In this document: positions 28,161 to 36,062 of the stretch, in pieces
How the letters are laid out: every line of letters begins with the position of its first letter
Position numbering within the stretch: position 1 is the first letter of the stretch
Source: Flavobacteriaceae bacterium
Lineage (GTDB): Bacteria > Bacteroidota > Bacteroidia > Flavobacteriales > Flavobacteriaceae
Direction of reading: 5' to 3'
Length of the DNA: 64,000 nucleotides
NCBI GenBank assembly: GCA_035705295.1
Contig: DASSWG010000006.1
Location: 3,327-67,326, forward strand
The notes under the pieces: generated by a model
Told to the model about the DNA's origin: nothing
Seen by the model: only the letters and a program-made list of their open reading frames with translations
The model's database searches: none
Program-made: the position numbers and the translations under genes

Positions 28161-28667
28161 TTATTGTTTTAAGTCATCTTCGCTGATGGAGAAACTATCC
28201 ACCACGATCACATCGTTTATGGGGTCGTAGCTTTCCACCACAAAATCGCCTTCGGCATTGAAATATCCAAAAGCGTTCCCGGATTCGGTCACCAATAAAT
28301 AGGCATTTGGGCGTGACATTTTTCGTATTTTCCCGTAATCGCTCTTTTTTCCTTCTTTTACAATGGTGATAACGAAACCTTTTGGATCGGGTTCAATGAT
28401 GTAATCTTCCCCATCGGAAACGAAGGTGGTCGATGTTTCCACCACCACGGGTTTTCGGTTCACGGTTTGGTTGGTGGTGCCGTCTTGTTCCAACGCCAAC
28501 TTTTGTTTGGCGATCCGTTCTTGTTTTTTCACGGAAACTTCTTCGCCAAGGCTTGATTTCACCGTGGTTTTGACAACCGTGGTTTCTTTTACGGTATCCG
28601 TGTTTTCAACTTGGGCAAAACCCATGGTCGAAAATACAAGGGCCGCACCTAAAAATAAAACTTTCAT
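28161..28667 (-). CDS. hypothetical secreted protein
   Basis: Starts MKVLFLGAALVFSTMGFAQ (signal peptide) at 28667. I recognise no family. Confidence 0.6.
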   Translation of the reverse strand: MKVLFLGAALVFSTMGFAQVENTDTVKETTVVKTTVKSSLGEEVSVKKQERIAKQKLALEQDGTTNQTVNRKPVVVETSTTFVSDGEDYIIEPDPKGFVITIVKEGKKSDYGKIRKMSRPNAYLLVTESGNAFGYFNAEGDFVVESYDPINDVIVVDSFSISEDDLKQ

Positions 28668-28889
28668 GATATTATCGTTTTTATTGTCAATACCCACAAA
28701 TTTAAGGCCAATGAATGTTAAAATGAACCAATAAAAACCCAAAATTTGTTTAATGTTTTGGTGCTAGCACGATTGTGTGGTTCGGAAAACGGGTTCCGCC
28801 AAGAAGGTCTCCGGTCTTTCGTCTTCGGGCTTCCGTCTCTACTCTGAAAATTGTTCCTTCCCAAAAAACGTTAAAACCAAACCAATCCT

Positions 28890-30232: not shown

Positions 30233-30273
30233 GGCAAAAATAAAAAACCAAGCTGCTAAAAAACAACTTGGTT
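30233..30273 (-). terminator. rho-independent terminator of the fibre gene
   Basis: aaccaag / cttggtt 7-bp stem. The plus-strand A-run (30233-30247) gives a U-run on the minus strand, ~90 nt past the stop at 30360. Confidence 0.6.
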
Positions 30274-30359
30274 TGGGTTGATCGAAGTCGCAGCCCCCGA
30301 CAATATTTTCAGGTTTCCCCTTTCTGCTATCCGATCAACTTACTTGAGAAAATGGTTTC

Positions 30360-33300
30360 TTATTTATTGTTTTTTTCCAATTGCTCCAATCTTTGCTGCA
30401 TTTTCACAACAAGGGCCTGTAGGTTTTCAATGGAAGTTTTTTGCGTTTCGATCATTTTTTGTTGCTCTTGGATGGCCCTAACGGCAATCACCCCAAAAGC
30501 AGAATAGTCCATCGTATAATTTCCTTCCAGGTCACCTTCTTTGTTCGGATTGTTGACCAACGAGGGAAATATTTCCTCAACTTCTTGCGCAAGAAAACCC
30601 ATATATCGTTTATCATTTTTTTGATGTAAAAATTTATAGGTAAAGGCATTGAGTTGCATAAGTTTGGGAAGGATAATTCCCATCGGCTGAAAAGCTGTTT
30701 TCAAGCGGGCATCGGAGGCGGCGGTATACGTTCCGCTCGTGCCGTCAAATGTGCCTATATTCGTGCCGGATTCATCGTATAAATACAAGTTGCCCGAAGT
30801 TGCATCTACCTGGAAATTCCAATATTTATCCGTGGCCCCGTTGCTATTTTCCAAAGTAAAACCATTGGTTCCGGCCGTACTGGCTGCGGCGTCATAAACT
30901 ATATGCAGTTCCGTTGAGGGAGCGCTGGTGCCAATCCCCACCTTTGTCGAAGTTGTAGCATCGTTTATGCCGTTGATACTTCCCAATATCAATGAATTGC
31001 TTTGGGACACTTCGGAATTGGCTCCGATGGCAGTGGCATTTTCCAATGCATCTGCACCTACATCCGCATTGTAACCCAGCGCGGTATTATGATTCCCCAT
31101 AATGTTGGAAGTCAATGCCAGTGTGCCGTGGGCGGTATTATTGCTCCCGAGAGTATTGGAATTCAAAGCTTCACTTCCATAGGCGACATTGCTACCACCA
31201 GTGGTATTGTGCCACAAAGCGGTATATCCGCTTGCGGTATTGCCATCTCCCGTATTGTCTGTTAAAGCCAAGAATCCATTTGCGGTGTTTCCATATGTAT
31301 CGATGTTTGAAAACAAAGCTTTGTATCCGGTGGCAGTATTGTTCCCTCCCGTAGTGTTGGAGTACAAGGCTTGGCTTCCATTGGCGGTATTTTGAAATCC
31401 TGTGGTGTTGGACGTCAAAGCTGCATCCCCGACGGCAGTATTCTCATATCCAATGGTGTTGGAATACAGCGCTCCGTTTCCAGTAGCGGTATTGTTGCTC
31501 CCCGTAGTGTTCGAGAATAAAGCGCTGCTTCCGACGGCAGTATTGAAAGTTCCCAATGTGTTTAAATACAACGCTCCGAATCCCGAAGCGGTATTGTTGC
31601 TCCCCGTGGTGTTGGACAACAAAGCACTACTTCCGACCGCAGTATTAAAAGCCCCTAATGTATTGGAATTCATTGAATTATTTCCGATAGCGACATTATA
31701 ATTCCCTGTGGTGTTTGAATTCAAAGCTCCATATCCGTTGGCGGTATTACCTTCTCCCGTGGTATTGAAATATAAGGCTAAATTTCCACTAGCAACGTTA
31801 AACGAGCCTGTGGAGTTGGAATACAAAGCTTTATGTCCGCTGGCGGTGTTTGAGCCCCCCGTGGTATTGGAATACAAAGTTTGGTATCCACTGGCGGTGT
31901 TAGAGCTTCCGGTGGTGTTGGAATACAAAGCTTTGGTTCCACTGGCGGTGTTAAATTTTCCGGTGGTATTGGAATACATGGCTTCATACCCATTGGCTGT
32001 ATTTTCAAATCCCGAGGTGTTGGAATACAATGCTGAATATCCGCTAGCGGTATTTCCATTTCCATCGATATTGGAATATAAAGCTTGGCTTCCGCTGGCA
32101 GTATTGTTGATTCCTATGGTATTGGAAAACATAGCTTGGGTTCCGGTAGCGGTATTTGCAATTCCCACGGTATTGGAAGCCAAAGCTTCACTTCCATAGG
32201 CAATGTTATCGGACCCTGAGATATTGTGCCACAAAGCTGCATATCCACTCGCGGTGTTTCCGCCTCCATCAACATTGTCTCGCAACGCAAGGAAACCGGT
32301 GGCGGTATTGGCCCCACCTGTGGTATTGGCCAATAAAGCCCTATATCCGTTGGCGGTGTTGTTTACCCCACTGGTATTGGAATTCAAAGCCTCATATCCA
32401 CTGGCAGTATTGTTGATTCCCGAGATATTGGAACTTAATGCGAAAGCACCAATAGCTGTATTTTCGGAGCCCGTAGTGTTGGCATTCAATGTTCGATATC
32501 CGAAAGAAGTATTTGTGCTGGTGGAAGAAATCATTCCGGCCTTTTCATTGTTTACCTTAAACCGCAAAGCTTCAGCATTGGTGGTCCCAATAAAATCGGT
32601 GGCGGTGGCGGAGTTTCCTCCGAGTTCCCAACCCGCATTGTCCGAGCTTGGTAACCAATTAGTGCCATCATATTCCAAAACCTGCCCGCTGATGGCGCCC
32701 ATATCGTCAATTTTTACAGCAGTGACCGCCGCGTTGGCCAAATCGGCAGTAACTATTGTTCCATCGTCAATTTCTGTGGAAGTCACGGCATCTGCAGCAA
32801 TATCATTGGACAAAATGGTTTCGTCCAAAATCTCCGTAGAGGTTATCGCACTGGCGGCGATATCACCGGTAGCGATGGTGCCGTCCACGATTTCTGAAGA
32901 TTCCACATCGGTACCGAGGTCGGCGGTGATTTCATTGGTGGCGGAAATACCGATACCCGTTCCCCCAGAATAGATATCGTTGGTGTCCACGTCGTTTGCC
33001 GGTGCCCAAGTGGTGCCGTTCCATTTCAAGGCCTGTCCGTTCGTCGCGGCCATTTGGTTGATTTTTCCGCCTTGGATATCCGCATCTTGAATATCGTTGT
33101 TGGCGATGGTTCCATCCAAAATATCTGTGGACAAAATGGTTTCGTCCAAAATCTCCGTAGAGGTTATCGCACTGGCGGCGATATCACCGGTAGCGATGGT
33201 GCCGTCCACGATTTCCGAAGATTCCACATCGGTACCGAGGTCGGCGGTGATTTCATTGGTGGCGGAGATGCCAATACCCGCTCCCCCGGAATAAATGTCG

Positions 33301-34496
33301 TTGGTGTCCACATCGTTCGCCGGGGCCCAAGTGGTGCCGTCCCATTTCAAGGCTTGTCCGTTCGTCGCGGCCATTTGGTTGATTTTCCCGCCTTGGATGC
33401 TGGCATCTTGAATATCGTTGTTGGCAATGGTTCCATCCAAAATGTCTGTGGACAAAATGGTTTCGTCCAAAATTTCCGTAGTGGTTACCGCACTGGCGGC
33501 GATATCTGCGGAGGCAATGGTGCCGTCCACGATTTCCGTGGTTGTCACCGCGTTGACTGCAATGTCGGCAGTGGCGATGGTTCCATCCACGATTTCCGAA
33601 GATTCGACGTCGGTGCCAAGGTCGGCTGTGATTTCATTGGTGGCGGAGATACCGATACCTGTTCCTTGAATGTAGGTGGGGCCCGGGACTCCTGCCGGAC
33701 CTTGAGCTCCGGTTAAACCGATTGGCCCTTGTGGGCCAGTAGCCCCGATTGCTCCGGCTGGTCCTGGAATTCCTTGAACACCCGTCAACCCGATTGGTCC
33801 TTGTGGACCGGTAGCTCCAATTGGCCCGGTTGGTCCGGTAGTTCCAGTTGGGCCTGGAACTCCTGCCGGACCTTGAGCTCCGGTTAAACCGATTGGCCCT
33901 TGTGGGCCGGTAGCTCCGGTTGGTCCAATAGCTCCAGTTGGGCCCGGAACCCCTGCTGGGCCTTGAGTTCCAGTTAGACCAATTGGCCCTTGTGGCCCAG
34001 GAATCCCTTGAGCGCCCGTCAACCCGATTGGCCCTTGTGGACCGGTAGCCCCAATTGGTCCGGTTGGTCCAGGATCACCTTGTGGTCCCTGTGGACCTGG
34101 GTTTCCATCCGCGGCATACAAGGCGTATGGCACACTCAAAAGTTCGGTGGTGCCCAAATCCGTATAGATAGTGCCGCCGGTAGGATCTATTCCCACATTG
34201 ATGAATTTGTTGCCGGCGCTCCAATCCACTCCGGCCATTGTTCCCATAACAGGCACTCCCTGACCAATTTGAAGGGTATAAAGGCCAAAATTATTAGTGG
34301 TTACCGTGTGGGTCTCAACATATTCGGTTGTGGAACCGTTGAGAATAGTGATTTGAATTCCCAAAGTTTGATTTGTCAAAGGATTGCCCGCATTATCACG
34401 GGCAATGCCTTGATAATTAAATTTTTCAGGAGCTTGTGCCTGAAGGTTCATGACCATTAACATGGCACTTACAAATAATAGAAGTTTTATTTTCAT
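30360..34496 (-). CDS. 1378-aa secreted collagen-like / beta-solenoid fibre protein with C-terminal Peptidase_S74-type intramolecular chaperone (tail-fibre-domain protein)
   Basis: Signal peptide [22 protein letters not shown]; ~110-aa N-terminal domain; 48 uninterrupted G-X-Y triplets (aa 131-274); three tandem 107-127-aa modules (aa 278-620); ~29 copies of 17-aa NTAxGxxALxSNTxGxx (aa 662-1152); then [15 protein letters not shown]...; then ASDARLK...[12 protein letters not shown]...[16 protein letters not shown] plus a coiled-coil tail. Confidence 0.9.
30363..30716 (-). other. C-terminal intramolecular chaperone / autoproteolysis domain (Peptidase_S74-like), aa 1261-1378
   Basis: SDARLK has Ser1261 and Lys1266 at the same 5-residue spacing as the Ser/Lys dyad of endosialidase-type tail spikes. 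It is followed by the conserved ..[14 protein letters not shown]..., ..[18 protein letters not shown].. and a helical tail. Confidence 0.75.
31041..32513 (-). repeat. ~29 tandem 51-nt (17-aa) coding repeats NTAxG-xxALx-SNTxG-xx
   Basis: Counted by hand from aa 662 ([17 protein letters not shown]) to aa 1152 ([16 protein letters not shown]). One unit is 16 aa long and all others are in register. Confidence 0.85.
32637..33665 (-). repeat. three tandem coding modules (127, 107, 109 aa), with an internal 10-aa xxEIxDGTIx sub-periodicity
   Basis: Units 32812-33132 and 33133-33453 align without indels. By hand I count 20 mismatches in 321 nt, and the first ~85 nt are identical. The third copy is more diverged. 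Confidence 0.85.
33675..34106 (-). repeat. collagen-like triple-helix tract, 48 uninterrupted Gly-X-Y triplets
   Basis: [36 protein letters not shown] ... GPA GVP GPT. Gly occurs at every third residue from aa 131 to aa 272. The DNA shows internal duplication of ~171-nt blocks. Confidence 0.9.
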
Positions 34497-34556
34497 GACA
34501 GTAAAATTATTTGGTTGTTAAATTATTTTAGAAATGTTGAACAATCTAGATCACTG

Positions 34557-35135
34557 TTAATAAGTGCCCAGTTTCAGTATTTTAAAACTGTGTTCATAAG
34601 TCCGTTTCCCTTGTTGCAAATTTGCTTGTAATATATAAGTACCTTCTTGCAGGAAATACAGGTTCAGTTGTTGCCTTTCCATGCCCGTTTGCAAATTGAT
34701 TTTATGTTTCATAATAAGTCGCCCGCGCAGATCAAAAAGACGGAGGGAAAGTTCGCCCCCTCCAGGAAAAGTCGGATGTAGGTATAAAGTATTCGCCACC
34801 GGGTTGGGGTACAAGGAAAGGCCTTCGTCCAAAAGTGGGTTTTCTTCTACATCCAACAAGTCGCCGTGGGCTTGCAGAACACCTTGTGTCACAATGAAAG
34901 ATGCACTTGTTTCCGTACTTATTAGCAGCATTTCGCCAATGGAATAGGCATAGAGGTTCCCAGCGATGTTTGCGCTGCCACCACTGGCGTTCAGGGTGCT
35001 TTGTGCATTTATCCCGTTCGGGAAGAAAACAAACCCCACTAAGGCAAAACCCAAACGGATTTTCCATATTGACGCCTTGGCCCCTCTTGGTTTTGGGGTT
35101 TTTGGCGTTTCAAAATGAAGTAGTTTGTGTTCCAT
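34557..35135 (-). CDS. small T9SS-sorted protein (type A C-terminal sorting domain), upstream partner of the fibre gene
   Basis: Starts MEHKLL at 35135. Signal-like IWKIRLGFALVGFVFFPNGINAQ; a ~55-aa module STLNASGGSANIAGNLYAYSIGEMLLISTETSASFIVTQGVLQ; C-terminal LSLYPNPVANTLYL...LRLFDLRGRLI...GTYILQA, the por-secretion tail pattern. Only 60 nt separate its stop from the fibre start. Confidence 0.8.
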   Translation of the reverse strand: MEHKLLHFETPKTPKPRGAKASIWKIRLGFALVGFVFFPNGINAQSTLNASGGSANIAGNLYAYSIGEMLLISTETSASFIVTQGVLQAHGDLLDVEENPLLDEGLSLYPNPVANTLYLHPTFPGGGELSLRLFDLRGRLIMKHKINLQTGMERQQLNLYFLQEGTYILQANLQQGKRTYEHSFKILKLGTY

Positions 35136-35170
35136 GATTCTTGGTTTTTGATTAATTGACTTAAGCGATA

Positions 35171-35197
35171 ATTTGCTCAAATTGCGTTAAAGCAAAT
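35171..35197. promoter_or_regulatory. 7-bp inverted repeat ATTTGCT-N13-AGCAAAT overlapping the -7 box of the fibre operon (candidate operator)
   Basis: Arms at 35171-35177 and 35191-35197. The right arm overlaps the minus-strand TAcaTTTG box at 35193-35200. Confidence 0.35.
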
Positions 35198-35200
35198 GTA
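35193..35200 (-). promoter_or_regulatory. putative -7 promoter box (TAcaTTTG on minus strand) of the T9SS-protein/fibre operon
   Basis: The plus-strand sequence caaatgta lies 57 nt upstream of the ATG at 35135. Confidence 0.4.
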
Positions 35201-35257
35201 TATACCAACAAGACACCAAAAAATAACCATCAATGGCCATTTTTCGTCAAAAATGCA

Positions 35258-35265
35258 TATATTTG
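35258..35265 (+). promoter_or_regulatory. putative -7 promoter box (TAtaTTTG) of the PAS-LuxR regulator
   Basis: TAnnTTTG match 32 nt upstream of the ATG at 35298. Confidence 0.45.
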
Positions 35266-35297
35266 TTTATCCTGTATTTTTAACCTGTCCTTCAATT

Positions 35298-36062
35298 ATG
35301 GAAAAAACCATTCTTGACGAAGCTAATCAGATTTGGAACAAGGCCACCAAAAACAAGGCTCCTGGGGATTTGCTCCTTGAAATGGAAATTTACAAGAAGT
35401 TGCTCAATATCTTCCAGGTGGGCGATTATTATTATTTTATTTTCAACGTGCCCCAAATGAGGATTGAATATGCCAGCGAATCCATTTCGTCGGTAATCGG
35501 CTGCCGTTCCGAAGATTATACAATTGATTATGTCCTGGATAATATCCACCCGGACGACCTGCCCCGTTTTTTGGATTTTGAAGCCACAGTTGTCGAATTT
35601 TTTTTACAGTTGCCTCCGGAAAAGACCATGAAATATAAATCACGTTACGATTACAGGATCAGGAAAACCGATGGCGACTACATCCATATTTTACAACAAG
35701 GCGTGGCCATTCAAAGTGATGGGGACGGAGTGGTGTTGCGCGCCTTTGTGGTGCATACCGACATATCGCACCTCAAAAAAAACAACAAAACGGTACTTTC
35801 CTTTATCGGTTTGGAAGGAGAGCCTTCTTATCTCGACGTGAAAAGCATCAAACGTATTCGACCGACAAAAGAACCACTTACCAATAGGGAAAAACAGATA
35901 CTTATTTTCTTGGCGAAAAACAAAACCAGCCTTGAAATTGGCGAAATGCTTTTTATAAGTAAAAACACCGTGGACAGGCATCGAAAAAATATGTTGGCAA
36001 AAACCGAAACCGGCACTACCCTGCAACTCGTGATGAAAGCCTTGGAAAAAGGATGGATTTAA
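35298..36062 (+). CDS. PAS domain-containing LuxR/GerE-family transcriptional regulator
   Basis: Starts MEKTILDEAN at 35298. PAS-like core ..IHPDDLPRFLDFEA...YDYRIRKTDGDYIHILQQGVAIQSDGDGVVLRAFVVHTDIS..; C-terminal HTH LTNREKQILIFLAKNKTSLEIGEMLFISKNTVDRHRKNMLAK. Confidence 0.85.
   Translation: MEKTILDEANQIWNKATKNKAPGDLLLEMEIYKKLLNIFQVGDYYYFIFNVPQMRIEYASESISSVIGCRSEDYTIDYVLDNIHPDDLPRFLDFEATVVEFFLQLPPEKTMKYKSRYDYRIRKTDGDYIHILQQGVAIQSDGDGVVLRAFVVHTDISHLKKNNKTVLSFIGLEGEPSYLDVKSIKRIRPTKEPLTNREKQILIFLAKNKTSLEIGEMLFISKNTVDRHRKNMLAKTETGTTLQLVMKALEKGWI

Follow-up and report, generated by a model that had tools for sequence, protein, structure and literature searches.

Phage tail fibres and spikes that bear a Peptidase_S74 (S74) domain are obligate trimers, as are collagen tracts; the S74 domain nucleates folding and then cleaves itself off at a conserved serine. 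In the type IX system for secretion (T9SS), type A sorting domains guide periplasmic proteins, once folded, through the SprA translocon; the domains are then removed, and the protein often ends up covalently attached to the cell surface. Long Bacteroidota surface fibres linked to this system include SprB of Flavobacterium johnsoniae and GhpA, the 'grappling hook' of Aureispira, both of which carry their own C-terminal sorting domain. GhpA forms a heptamer of Ig-like repeats and is accompanied by PorP/PorE-like anchor genes, and SprA, ~70 Å wide, lets folded cargo through (bioRxiv 10.1101/2024.01.29.577165). Here we analysed a stretch of 64,000 nucleotides, referred to below as the window, from the chromosome of a marine-type member of the Flavobacteriaceae (contig DASSWG010000006.1, positions 3,327 to 67,326). 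It encodes a 1378-residue fibre (30360..34496, minus strand) and, 60 nucleotides upstream on the same strand, a small protein with a T9SS sorting domain, which we call P. The fibre is made of known parts in a new arrangement, together with two undescribed domains. A literature search that covered few subscription journals returned no description of the gene pair and, as an earlier note on this DNA had stated, no characterised system with this combination of features; as far as we found, and provisionally, the paired module is undescribed.

The window fibre resembles the S74 fibres and spikes of phages, such as the T5 L-shaped fibre, the fibre of entry 6F45 and the GA-1 protein of entry 3GUD, in its shaft, tip, chaperone and S-D-x-R-x-K motif, and trimer folding followed by self-cleavage would be expected for it by analogy with that family. 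Unlike these proteins, it has a Sec signal peptide, a cellular β-sandwich N-terminus and housekeeping neighbours. SprB and GhpA offer a second likeness, as long T9SS-linked fibres of the Bacteroidota surface. Here, however, the sorting domain sits on the separate 192-residue P, and the C-terminus of the fibre is a predicted self-cleaving chaperone. Trimeric autotransporter adhesins (YadA, type Vc) are likewise expected trimers with an Asn/Gly-rich solenoid of short repeats. The 17-residue repeat of the window fibre resembles the YadA_head motif; the fibre itself gave no YadA_head match at E < 0.01, one homolog (P0005) matched the family with 26.2 bits against a cut-off of 25, and some homologs are named 'trimeric autotransporter adhesin' by the Joint Genome Institute. 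Unlike the YadA type, the window fibre has no C-terminal β-barrel anchor: no anchor family of this kind was matched in Pfam, and the C-terminus is S74. Its polarity would also be reversed, the presumed cell-proximal end being the N-terminus. The collagen-like proteins Scl1/Scl2, Lcl and BclA share with it a G-X-Y tract in a secreted protein, and their NCBIfam models match far below their cut-offs (for example, 79 against 325). The window fibre differs from them in having neither an LPXTG motif nor an Lcl C-terminal domain, and its anchoring would use a different system. Finally, in hitch-hiker export, described for substrates of the twin-arginine translocation (Tat) pathway and for peroxisomal import, a folded partner without a signal rides with a signal-bearing subunit (PMC9251779). 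We propose the same concept, as a hypothesis, for the fibre and P.

The main result is that P and the gene encoding the N-terminal domain of the fibre (the N-domain) constitute a conserved two-gene module found across several Bacteroidota orders. We defined a P-N module as a P gene lying directly upstream of a same-strand gene that opens with a signal peptide and a 'FNYQG.AR' N-domain, with a ~45-residue passenger in P of the pattern 'GGSA..SIGEM..VTQGVLQ'; the gene pair in the window has this organization. Five independent relatives of P, including those of a Polluticoccus soli locus (L004) and of contigs L003, L005 and L006, all lay directly upstream of an N-domain gene, and the flanking genes differed from case to case. 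A metagenome scan seeded by the passenger alone gave 42 loci, with 41 P genes that had enough downstream sequence. An N-domain gene lay 4-61 bp downstream in 34 of these and directly upstream in 4, so that 38 of the 41 P genes abut one; the remaining 3 had none. The converse scan, seeded by the N-domain and restricted to one genome per species, gave 79 loci. These belong to Flavobacteriales (Cryomorpha, Psychroflexus, Mesonia, Haloflavibacter) and Chitinophagales (Taibaiella, Edaphocola, Flavipsychrobacter) and also take in metagenome-assembled genomes of Sphingobacteriales, Cytophagales-type and Bacteroidales origin. This set holds 98 N-domain genes. Directly upstream of 56 of them is a passenger gene (median gap ~38 bp), and in 6 that place is taken by a small sorting-domain gene of diverged sequence; 9 stand behind another N-domain gene in a P-N-N array, 3 lie too near a contig end to judge and 24 have no partner that we could find. 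A small T9SS gene is thus directly upstream in 62 of the 95 evaluable cases. Since the loci were found via short peptide patterns, the sample favours conserved members that contain those patterns. Searches seeded from both genes bear out the expectation that the small T9SS gene is a syntenic partner in relatives.

The division of labour between the two genes is equally consistent. A hidden Markov model (HMM) of the sorting domain matched 111 of 115 P genes and none of 153 N-domain genes; within these loci it detected 33 unrelated T9SS cargoes as well, and is therefore not blind to other cargo. PF18962 was listed for none of the 120 best fibre homologs, and no natural fusion of passenger and N-domain occurred among the 284 proteins collected. 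The C-termini of the N-domain genes, by contrast, vary. Of 104 such genes in related loci, 26 end in S74, 34 in a 'DHPLDP' type of domain and 44 in something else, and many have no collagen tract. The 34 are a simple motif count of an alternative C-terminal domain, 'FKIDHPLDPENK...'. Proteins of 652 residues in L004 and 701 residues in L006 are examples of different C-termini that are nonetheless paired with P. With S74 on 26 of 104 genes only, the partnership is with the N-domain and not with S74 or collagen. This corrects the earlier note, which had tied the partner to the S74/collagen fibre; the pairing follows the ~108-residue N-domain.

Several side observations concern the arrangement of these loci. 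The alternative C-terminal domain spans ~150 residues ('...GGGTFKIDHPLDPENKYLYHSFVESPDMMN.YNG...'), is seen in L004:10546-12504 and L006:4243-6348 and has no Pfam match. A minority of loci show the opposite order, in which an N-domain gene of ~330-380 codons is followed by the small T9SS gene (L008:4669-6164, L048, L049 and L050; also L102, L106, L111 and L124); these short fibres have neither collagen nor S74. At L006:2361-8281, an array comprises a small T9SS gene, an S74 fibre of 432 residues, a collagen fibre of 701 residues with the alternative C-terminus and a 601-residue T9SS cargo, and here one partner gene may serve several fibres. In L003, the small T9SS gene has a gene for a 171-residue OMP_b-brl outer-membrane protein just upstream (L003:8194-8709); this protein could be a dedicated anchor at that locus, and nothing comparable stands beside the window module. 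Module contigs L022, L027, L029, L052 and L084 are filed under metagenome-assembled genomes named Azovibrio, Bifidobacterium and Methylotenera, most likely a binning contamination by Bacteroidota contigs and not a true presence outside the phylum.

P is encoded at 34557..35135 on the minus strand and comprises a signal peptide, the ~45-residue passenger, with the family pattern 'TLNASGGSA.I.GN.Y.YSIGEM.LVST......IVTQGVLQ', a short linker and a type A sorting domain. The gene is the one that the earlier note had described; its product is 192 residues followed by a stop codon, rather than 193. The sorting domain occupies residues ~104-189 (34569..34826, minus strand) and was recognized by both PF18962 (37.6 bits; cut-off 27) and TIGR04183 (34.7 bits; cut-off 23), with the match covering residues 108-179. 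In the AlphaFold2 (AF2) model, its predicted local distance difference test (pLDDT) score is ~98, compared with 50-70 for the passenger. The passenger, residues 45-91 (34863..35003, minus strand; 'QSTLNASGGSANIAGNLYAYSIGEMLLISTETSASFIVTQGVLQAHG'), is the segment that defines the family by profile search. A word-indexed search with P returned 16 relatives, one of them identical (P0121, from a Flavobacteriaceae metagenome-assembled genome), and a passenger-only profile run against 1.84 billion representatives gave 1050 clusters at E ≤ 1e-3, of which 200 reached E ≤ 1e-10. Family members are nearly all 160-195 residues long, with the passenger immediately behind the signal peptide. By mean pairwise distance, the passenger (0.45) is more conserved than the sorting domain (0.67), and its conservation equals that of the N-domain. 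A segment so conserved and yet modelled with low pLDDT suggests that the passenger probably folds only on binding its partner. A diverged branch of P, with a passenger of the type '...IAGEPVIET..GGN.FFTQGFEQP' and a T9SS sorting domain, lies directly upstream of N-domain genes at L064:5223-5750, L065:3170-3688 and L068:5362-5880; it was missed by the passenger HMM, and the P family is therefore wider than counted.

The N-domain, residues 23-130 of the fibre (34107..34430, minus strand), follows a Sec-type signal peptide of 22 residues (34431..34496, minus strand; judged by eye from the sequence). The AF2 model is a seven-strand β-sandwich with a mean pLDDT of 89.4, and the most conserved motif sits at the end next to the collagen tract, where the model is poor. 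A fold search against the Protein Data Bank (PDB) yielded no close relative, only generic β-sandwich matches with template modelling (TM) scores ≤ 0.48. The best match was a neck chain of phage XM1 (7kjk_A3; E 3e-3, TM 0.41), a likeness of the same generic kind that we did not use for assignment. The domain matched no Pfam, NCBIfam or PHROGs family and had no match in IMG/VR contigs or phage records. In an HMM search with the first ~108 mature residues, it was found directly after the signal peptide in 107 of the 120 best full-length fibre homologs, and a profile search collected at least 1000 proteins (1001 matches listed), all of them unnamed or labelled 'collagen-like'. This domain marks out the fibre family, and it is the part found together with the small T9SS gene.

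Downstream of the N-domain, the fibre has the anatomy of a long shaft. A collagen tract of 48 uninterrupted G-X-Y triplets spans residues 131-274 (33675..34106, minus strand; PF01391, 74.5 bits against a cut-off of 27.2, E 6e-21). It is followed by three tandem modules, residues 278-623 (32628..33665, minus strand), which start at residues 278, 405 and 512 and are each built of ~11-residue 'I.DGTI...DIA' units terminated by 'GQxLxW.GT.W.P'; at the DNA level, Tandem Repeats Finder gave a period of 321 bp in 2.3 copies at 92% identity. A solenoid of 28 17-residue repeats covers residues 679-1155 (31032..32462, minus strand), with the consensus 'NTAxGxxALxSNTxGxx' and DNA periods of 51 and 102 bp. 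The distal tip region, residues 1156-1260 (30717..31031, minus strand), is part of the sequence that can be aligned to phage tail fibres; it is presumed, from the sequence, to be exposed as the binding end once S74 is removed. The Peptidase_S74 domain, an intramolecular chaperone, closes the protein at residues 1261-1378 (30363..30716, minus strand), with the S-D-A-R-L-K motif and a terminal tail of coiled-coil-like character. Removal of the leader and of S74 would leave a mature part of ~1238 residues (approximately residues 23-1260). No PF18962, TIGR04183 or type B/C sorting-domain model matched the fibre in Pfam or NCBIfam. Nearly all of this had been read correctly in the earlier note, namely the 48 triplets, the three modules (found by script as well as by Tandem Repeats Finder), the missing T9SS tail and a mature length of ~1240 residues; the 17-residue repeats are likewise present, in 28 regular copies instead of ~29. 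The profile matches that it had foreseen, to Collagen, Peptidase_S74, TIGR04183, PAS and GerE, were all obtained in Pfam and NCBIfam.

The chaperone assignment proposed earlier holds on two lines of evidence. PF13884 (Peptidase_S74) matched residues 1261-1314 with 47.8 bits (cut-off 22, E 2e-12), and within the S-D-A-R-L-K motif at residues 1261-1266 both Ser1261 and Lys1266 are invariant in 12 homologs. A C-terminal profile built from 12 sequences also matched the solved intramolecular chaperone domains 6f45_A, 8jov_1, 7dc3_A, 8hqz_d and 3gud_A. The best of these was 6F45, the distal subunit of a phage long tail fibre (E 1e-16), and the others represent a putative tail fibre (8JOV), MYRF (7DC3), the T5 L-shaped fibre (8HQZ) and the GA-1 neck appendage (3GUD). 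Alignment with solved matches, 6f45_A and 8jov_1 among them, placed the Ser and Lys residues of S-D-x-R-x-K in register. The profile was needed for this result, as a phmmer search of PDB sequences with the last 246 residues of the fibre gave no match.

A full-length fibre search returned 4445 proteins at E ≤ 1e-10. Those with names are mostly Bacteroidota proteins called 'tail fiber domain-containing protein' or 'hypothetical protein', and the C-terminal domains are diverse (S74, Lcl_C, C1q and Fib_succ_major). P occurs at 100% identity in a collection of 5.8 billion proteins from which the full fibre is absent (best match 721 bits), because assemblies break within the collagen repeats. Two contigs of the same species, L001 (2107 bp) and L002 (1900 bp), are short-read assemblies that end in this way inside the collagen repeats of the fibre gene. 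Among phages in GenBank, 146 records matched the fibre, with alignments only from residue 615 onward. The top match was a protein of Methylophilales phage Venkman, with 40% identity over residues 661-1357, followed by a Pelagibacter phage tail fibre with 36% identity over residues 653-1376. In PHROGs, the collagen/module and solenoid/S74 parts matched many tail-fibre, tail-spike and virion-structural families, with tail-fibre families at the three modules and, for the solenoid, a virion structural protein at E 5e-106 and a tail spike at E 2e-61. Neither P nor the first 135 residues of the fibre matched any of the 38,880 PHROGs families. By sequence, then, the fibre is a chimera of a phage-type shaft, tip and chaperone with a cellular N-terminus, in which the baseplate-docking N-terminus of a phage fibre appears to have been replaced by a signal peptide and a docking domain of the cell's own.

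It is very probable, in our judgement, that P and the fibre function together. That the module builds a cell-made, non-viral surface fibre, with the N-domain docked on a T9SS-sorted adaptor for export and/or anchoring, is a reading that we regard as evenly poised. In the mechanism that we propose, the fibre would leave the cytoplasm by Sec, and S74 would nucleate a homotrimer in the periplasm before cutting itself off at Ser1261 and baring the distal tip. The three N-domains, standing in for the baseplate-docking end of a phage fibre, would bind the passenger of P, which would fold on binding them, and the sorting domain of P would carry the complex through the T9SS translocon and/or tether it to the surface. 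This would make the sorting signal one that acts in trans, and the fibre would be an adhesin with its specificity in the exchangeable, phage-derived distal part. The full version, in which the self-processed homotrimer hitch-hikes via T9SS on the P passenger and stays tethered, with P as a trans-acting sorting and anchoring subunit, is put forward tentatively, and we hold it to be somewhat unlikely as a whole.

A number of observations weigh against the docked-adaptor reading. An adjacent small sorting-domain gene is missing for 24 of the 95 evaluable N-domain genes. In a mirror-tree comparison of 78 non-redundant pairs, the N-domain correlated less with the passenger (r = 0.35) than with the sorting domain (r = 0.52), and a partial Mantel test (partial r = 0.14) gave no passenger-specific signal; we treat these tests as uninformative. 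The genes of the T9SS machinery lie outside the window, and their presence in this genome is an assumption based on P0121, the identical protein, which is affiliated with Flavobacteriaceae. To our knowledge, hitch-hiking through T9SS has no precedent; our literature search found none, and the hitch-hiker review makes no mention of it (PMC9251779).

If the trans-sorting mechanism were true, T9SS would be used here in a new way; the fibres would represent the first split-signal, or hitch-hiker, class of T9SS cargo, and also a widespread Bacteroidota family in which the shafts and tips of phage tail fibres are recruited as adhesin heads that can be exchanged. Because T9SS cargo is now recognized by its own sorting domain, no T9SS secretome prediction would include these long surface fibres, which form a large class. 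A signal acting in trans would change the reading of secretomes and adhesin repertoires in Flavobacteriia, Chitinophagia and their relatives, and a minimal tag of 45 residues might bring foreign proteins to the Bacteroidota surface. The module also offers a clean case for the study of receptor-binding-module exchange between phages and the adhesins of their hosts, in which cells have taken over phage shafts, tips and the S74 chaperone by swapping only the baseplate-docking end.

Of the alternatives to a docked, T9SS-sorted adaptor, the one that survives best makes P a transient periplasmic assembly factor, which would cap the N-domain or keep the protomers in register and be discarded via T9SS while the fibre is exported otherwise. 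This idea draws on the same synteny, on the resemblance of the passenger to a binding peptide that is unfolded alone and on the N-domain genes that have no adjacent P. However, under this idea the fibre has no known means of crossing the outer membrane, and the presence of a sorting domain on P and never on fibres goes unexplained; we consider this reading unlikely.

Less probable still is a complete separation of roles, in which the fibre would be periplasmic, or released by vesicles or lysis, and P would be, for instance, a signalling cargo that reports T9SS activity. Such a role has reportedly been proposed for PorA of Porphyromonas gingivalis, a small sorting-domain protein. The missing sorting domain of the fibre and the near absence of a passenger in P would fit this picture, as would the regulator gene that adjoins the pair in the window, a divergently transcribed PAS_3 and GerE (LuxR-type) protein at 35196..36062 on the plus strand. 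But the adjacency of P and N-domain genes is tight, bidirectional, operon-like in spacing and seen across orders, and a 1240-residue collagen/solenoid trimer with a phage-type receptor-binding end is ill-suited to the periplasm. Nor is the regulator conserved with the module: its full-length homologs were found near the module only on the same-species contigs L001 and L002, and the 79 genome loci contained four unrelated matches to the helix-turn-helix alone, none of them adjacent to the module. We therefore rejected the regulator as a part of the module. Its two domains and its divergent orientation agree with the earlier note, whose proposed check for a shared synteny in relatives turned out negative for the regulator. 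The start codon is probably Met35 at 35298, as called on L002, which gives a divergent region of 162 bp (~160 bp in the earlier note); local regulation of the module by this protein in this organism is possible but unsupported.

That a prophage, tailocin or contractile injection system left this locus behind, with the fibre as a virion tail fibre, is highly improbable. Homology of the shaft, tip and S74 domain to phage tail fibres (Venkman, the Pelagibacter phage and PHROGs families, as described above) is what such an origin would predict. However, no phage structural, lysis or integrase gene was found among the 30 flanking open reading frames (ORFs) scanned between 4.4 and 58.5 kb, a set of longer ORFs that stops ~5 kb short of each end of the window. 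These are housekeeping genes (priA, hisS, recQ, murA-type, serA/serC-type, ychF, parE, parC, gcvT, clpB and gyrA), as expected of the chromosomal, non-prophage locus that had been claimed. Together with the Sec signal peptide, an N-domain absent from PHROGs, phage records and IMG/VR, and the occurrence of the module in many unrelated housekeeping contexts, they largely refute the prophage reading, which we rejected. Coincidental adjacency within a shared mobile cassette, with no functional link, would suit a unit that moves between different contexts but is just as improbable, given that an N-domain gene adjoins 38 of 41 P genes sampled independently, that the passenger is strongly conserved relative to the sorting domain and that the fibre C-termini vary freely.

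The remaining features concern transcription and the immediate surroundings. The ORF table reproduces the layout reported before, with the fibre gene, the small T9SS gene 60 nucleotides upstream and the divergent regulator. A search of the spacer between P and the fibre (34497..34556, minus strand) found no terminator-like hairpin, which is consistent with co-transcription. Approximately 85 nucleotides past the fibre stop codon, a terminator-like hairpin of 13 pairs followed by a T run (30245..30274, minus strand) is the probable end of a two-gene transcript. The Bacteroidetes -7 promoter consensus is TAnnTTTG, and TACATTTG at 35193..35200 (minus strand), 57 nucleotides upstream of the P start codon, is a weak candidate match, of a kind whose chance occurrence in 162 bp is not unlikely. 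A sigma-70 scan returned 14 promoters against 10.2 ± 3.4 in shuffled sequence, which is not above expectation, with a model that is unsuited to Bacteroidota. Between a ferredoxin-like ORF and ychF lies a 193-residue ORF (28161-28742, minus strand) that starts with a hydrophobic leader and belongs to no Pfam family. Four antisense ORFs of 156-256 residues inside the fibre gene (31708-32199, 32203-32973, 33054-33716 and 33990-34460, all on the plus strand) are by-products of its repeats and composition, not genes. The G+C content of the window rises to 0.519 at 32-34 kb, compared with ~0.42 elsewhere, because of the Gly and Pro codons there.

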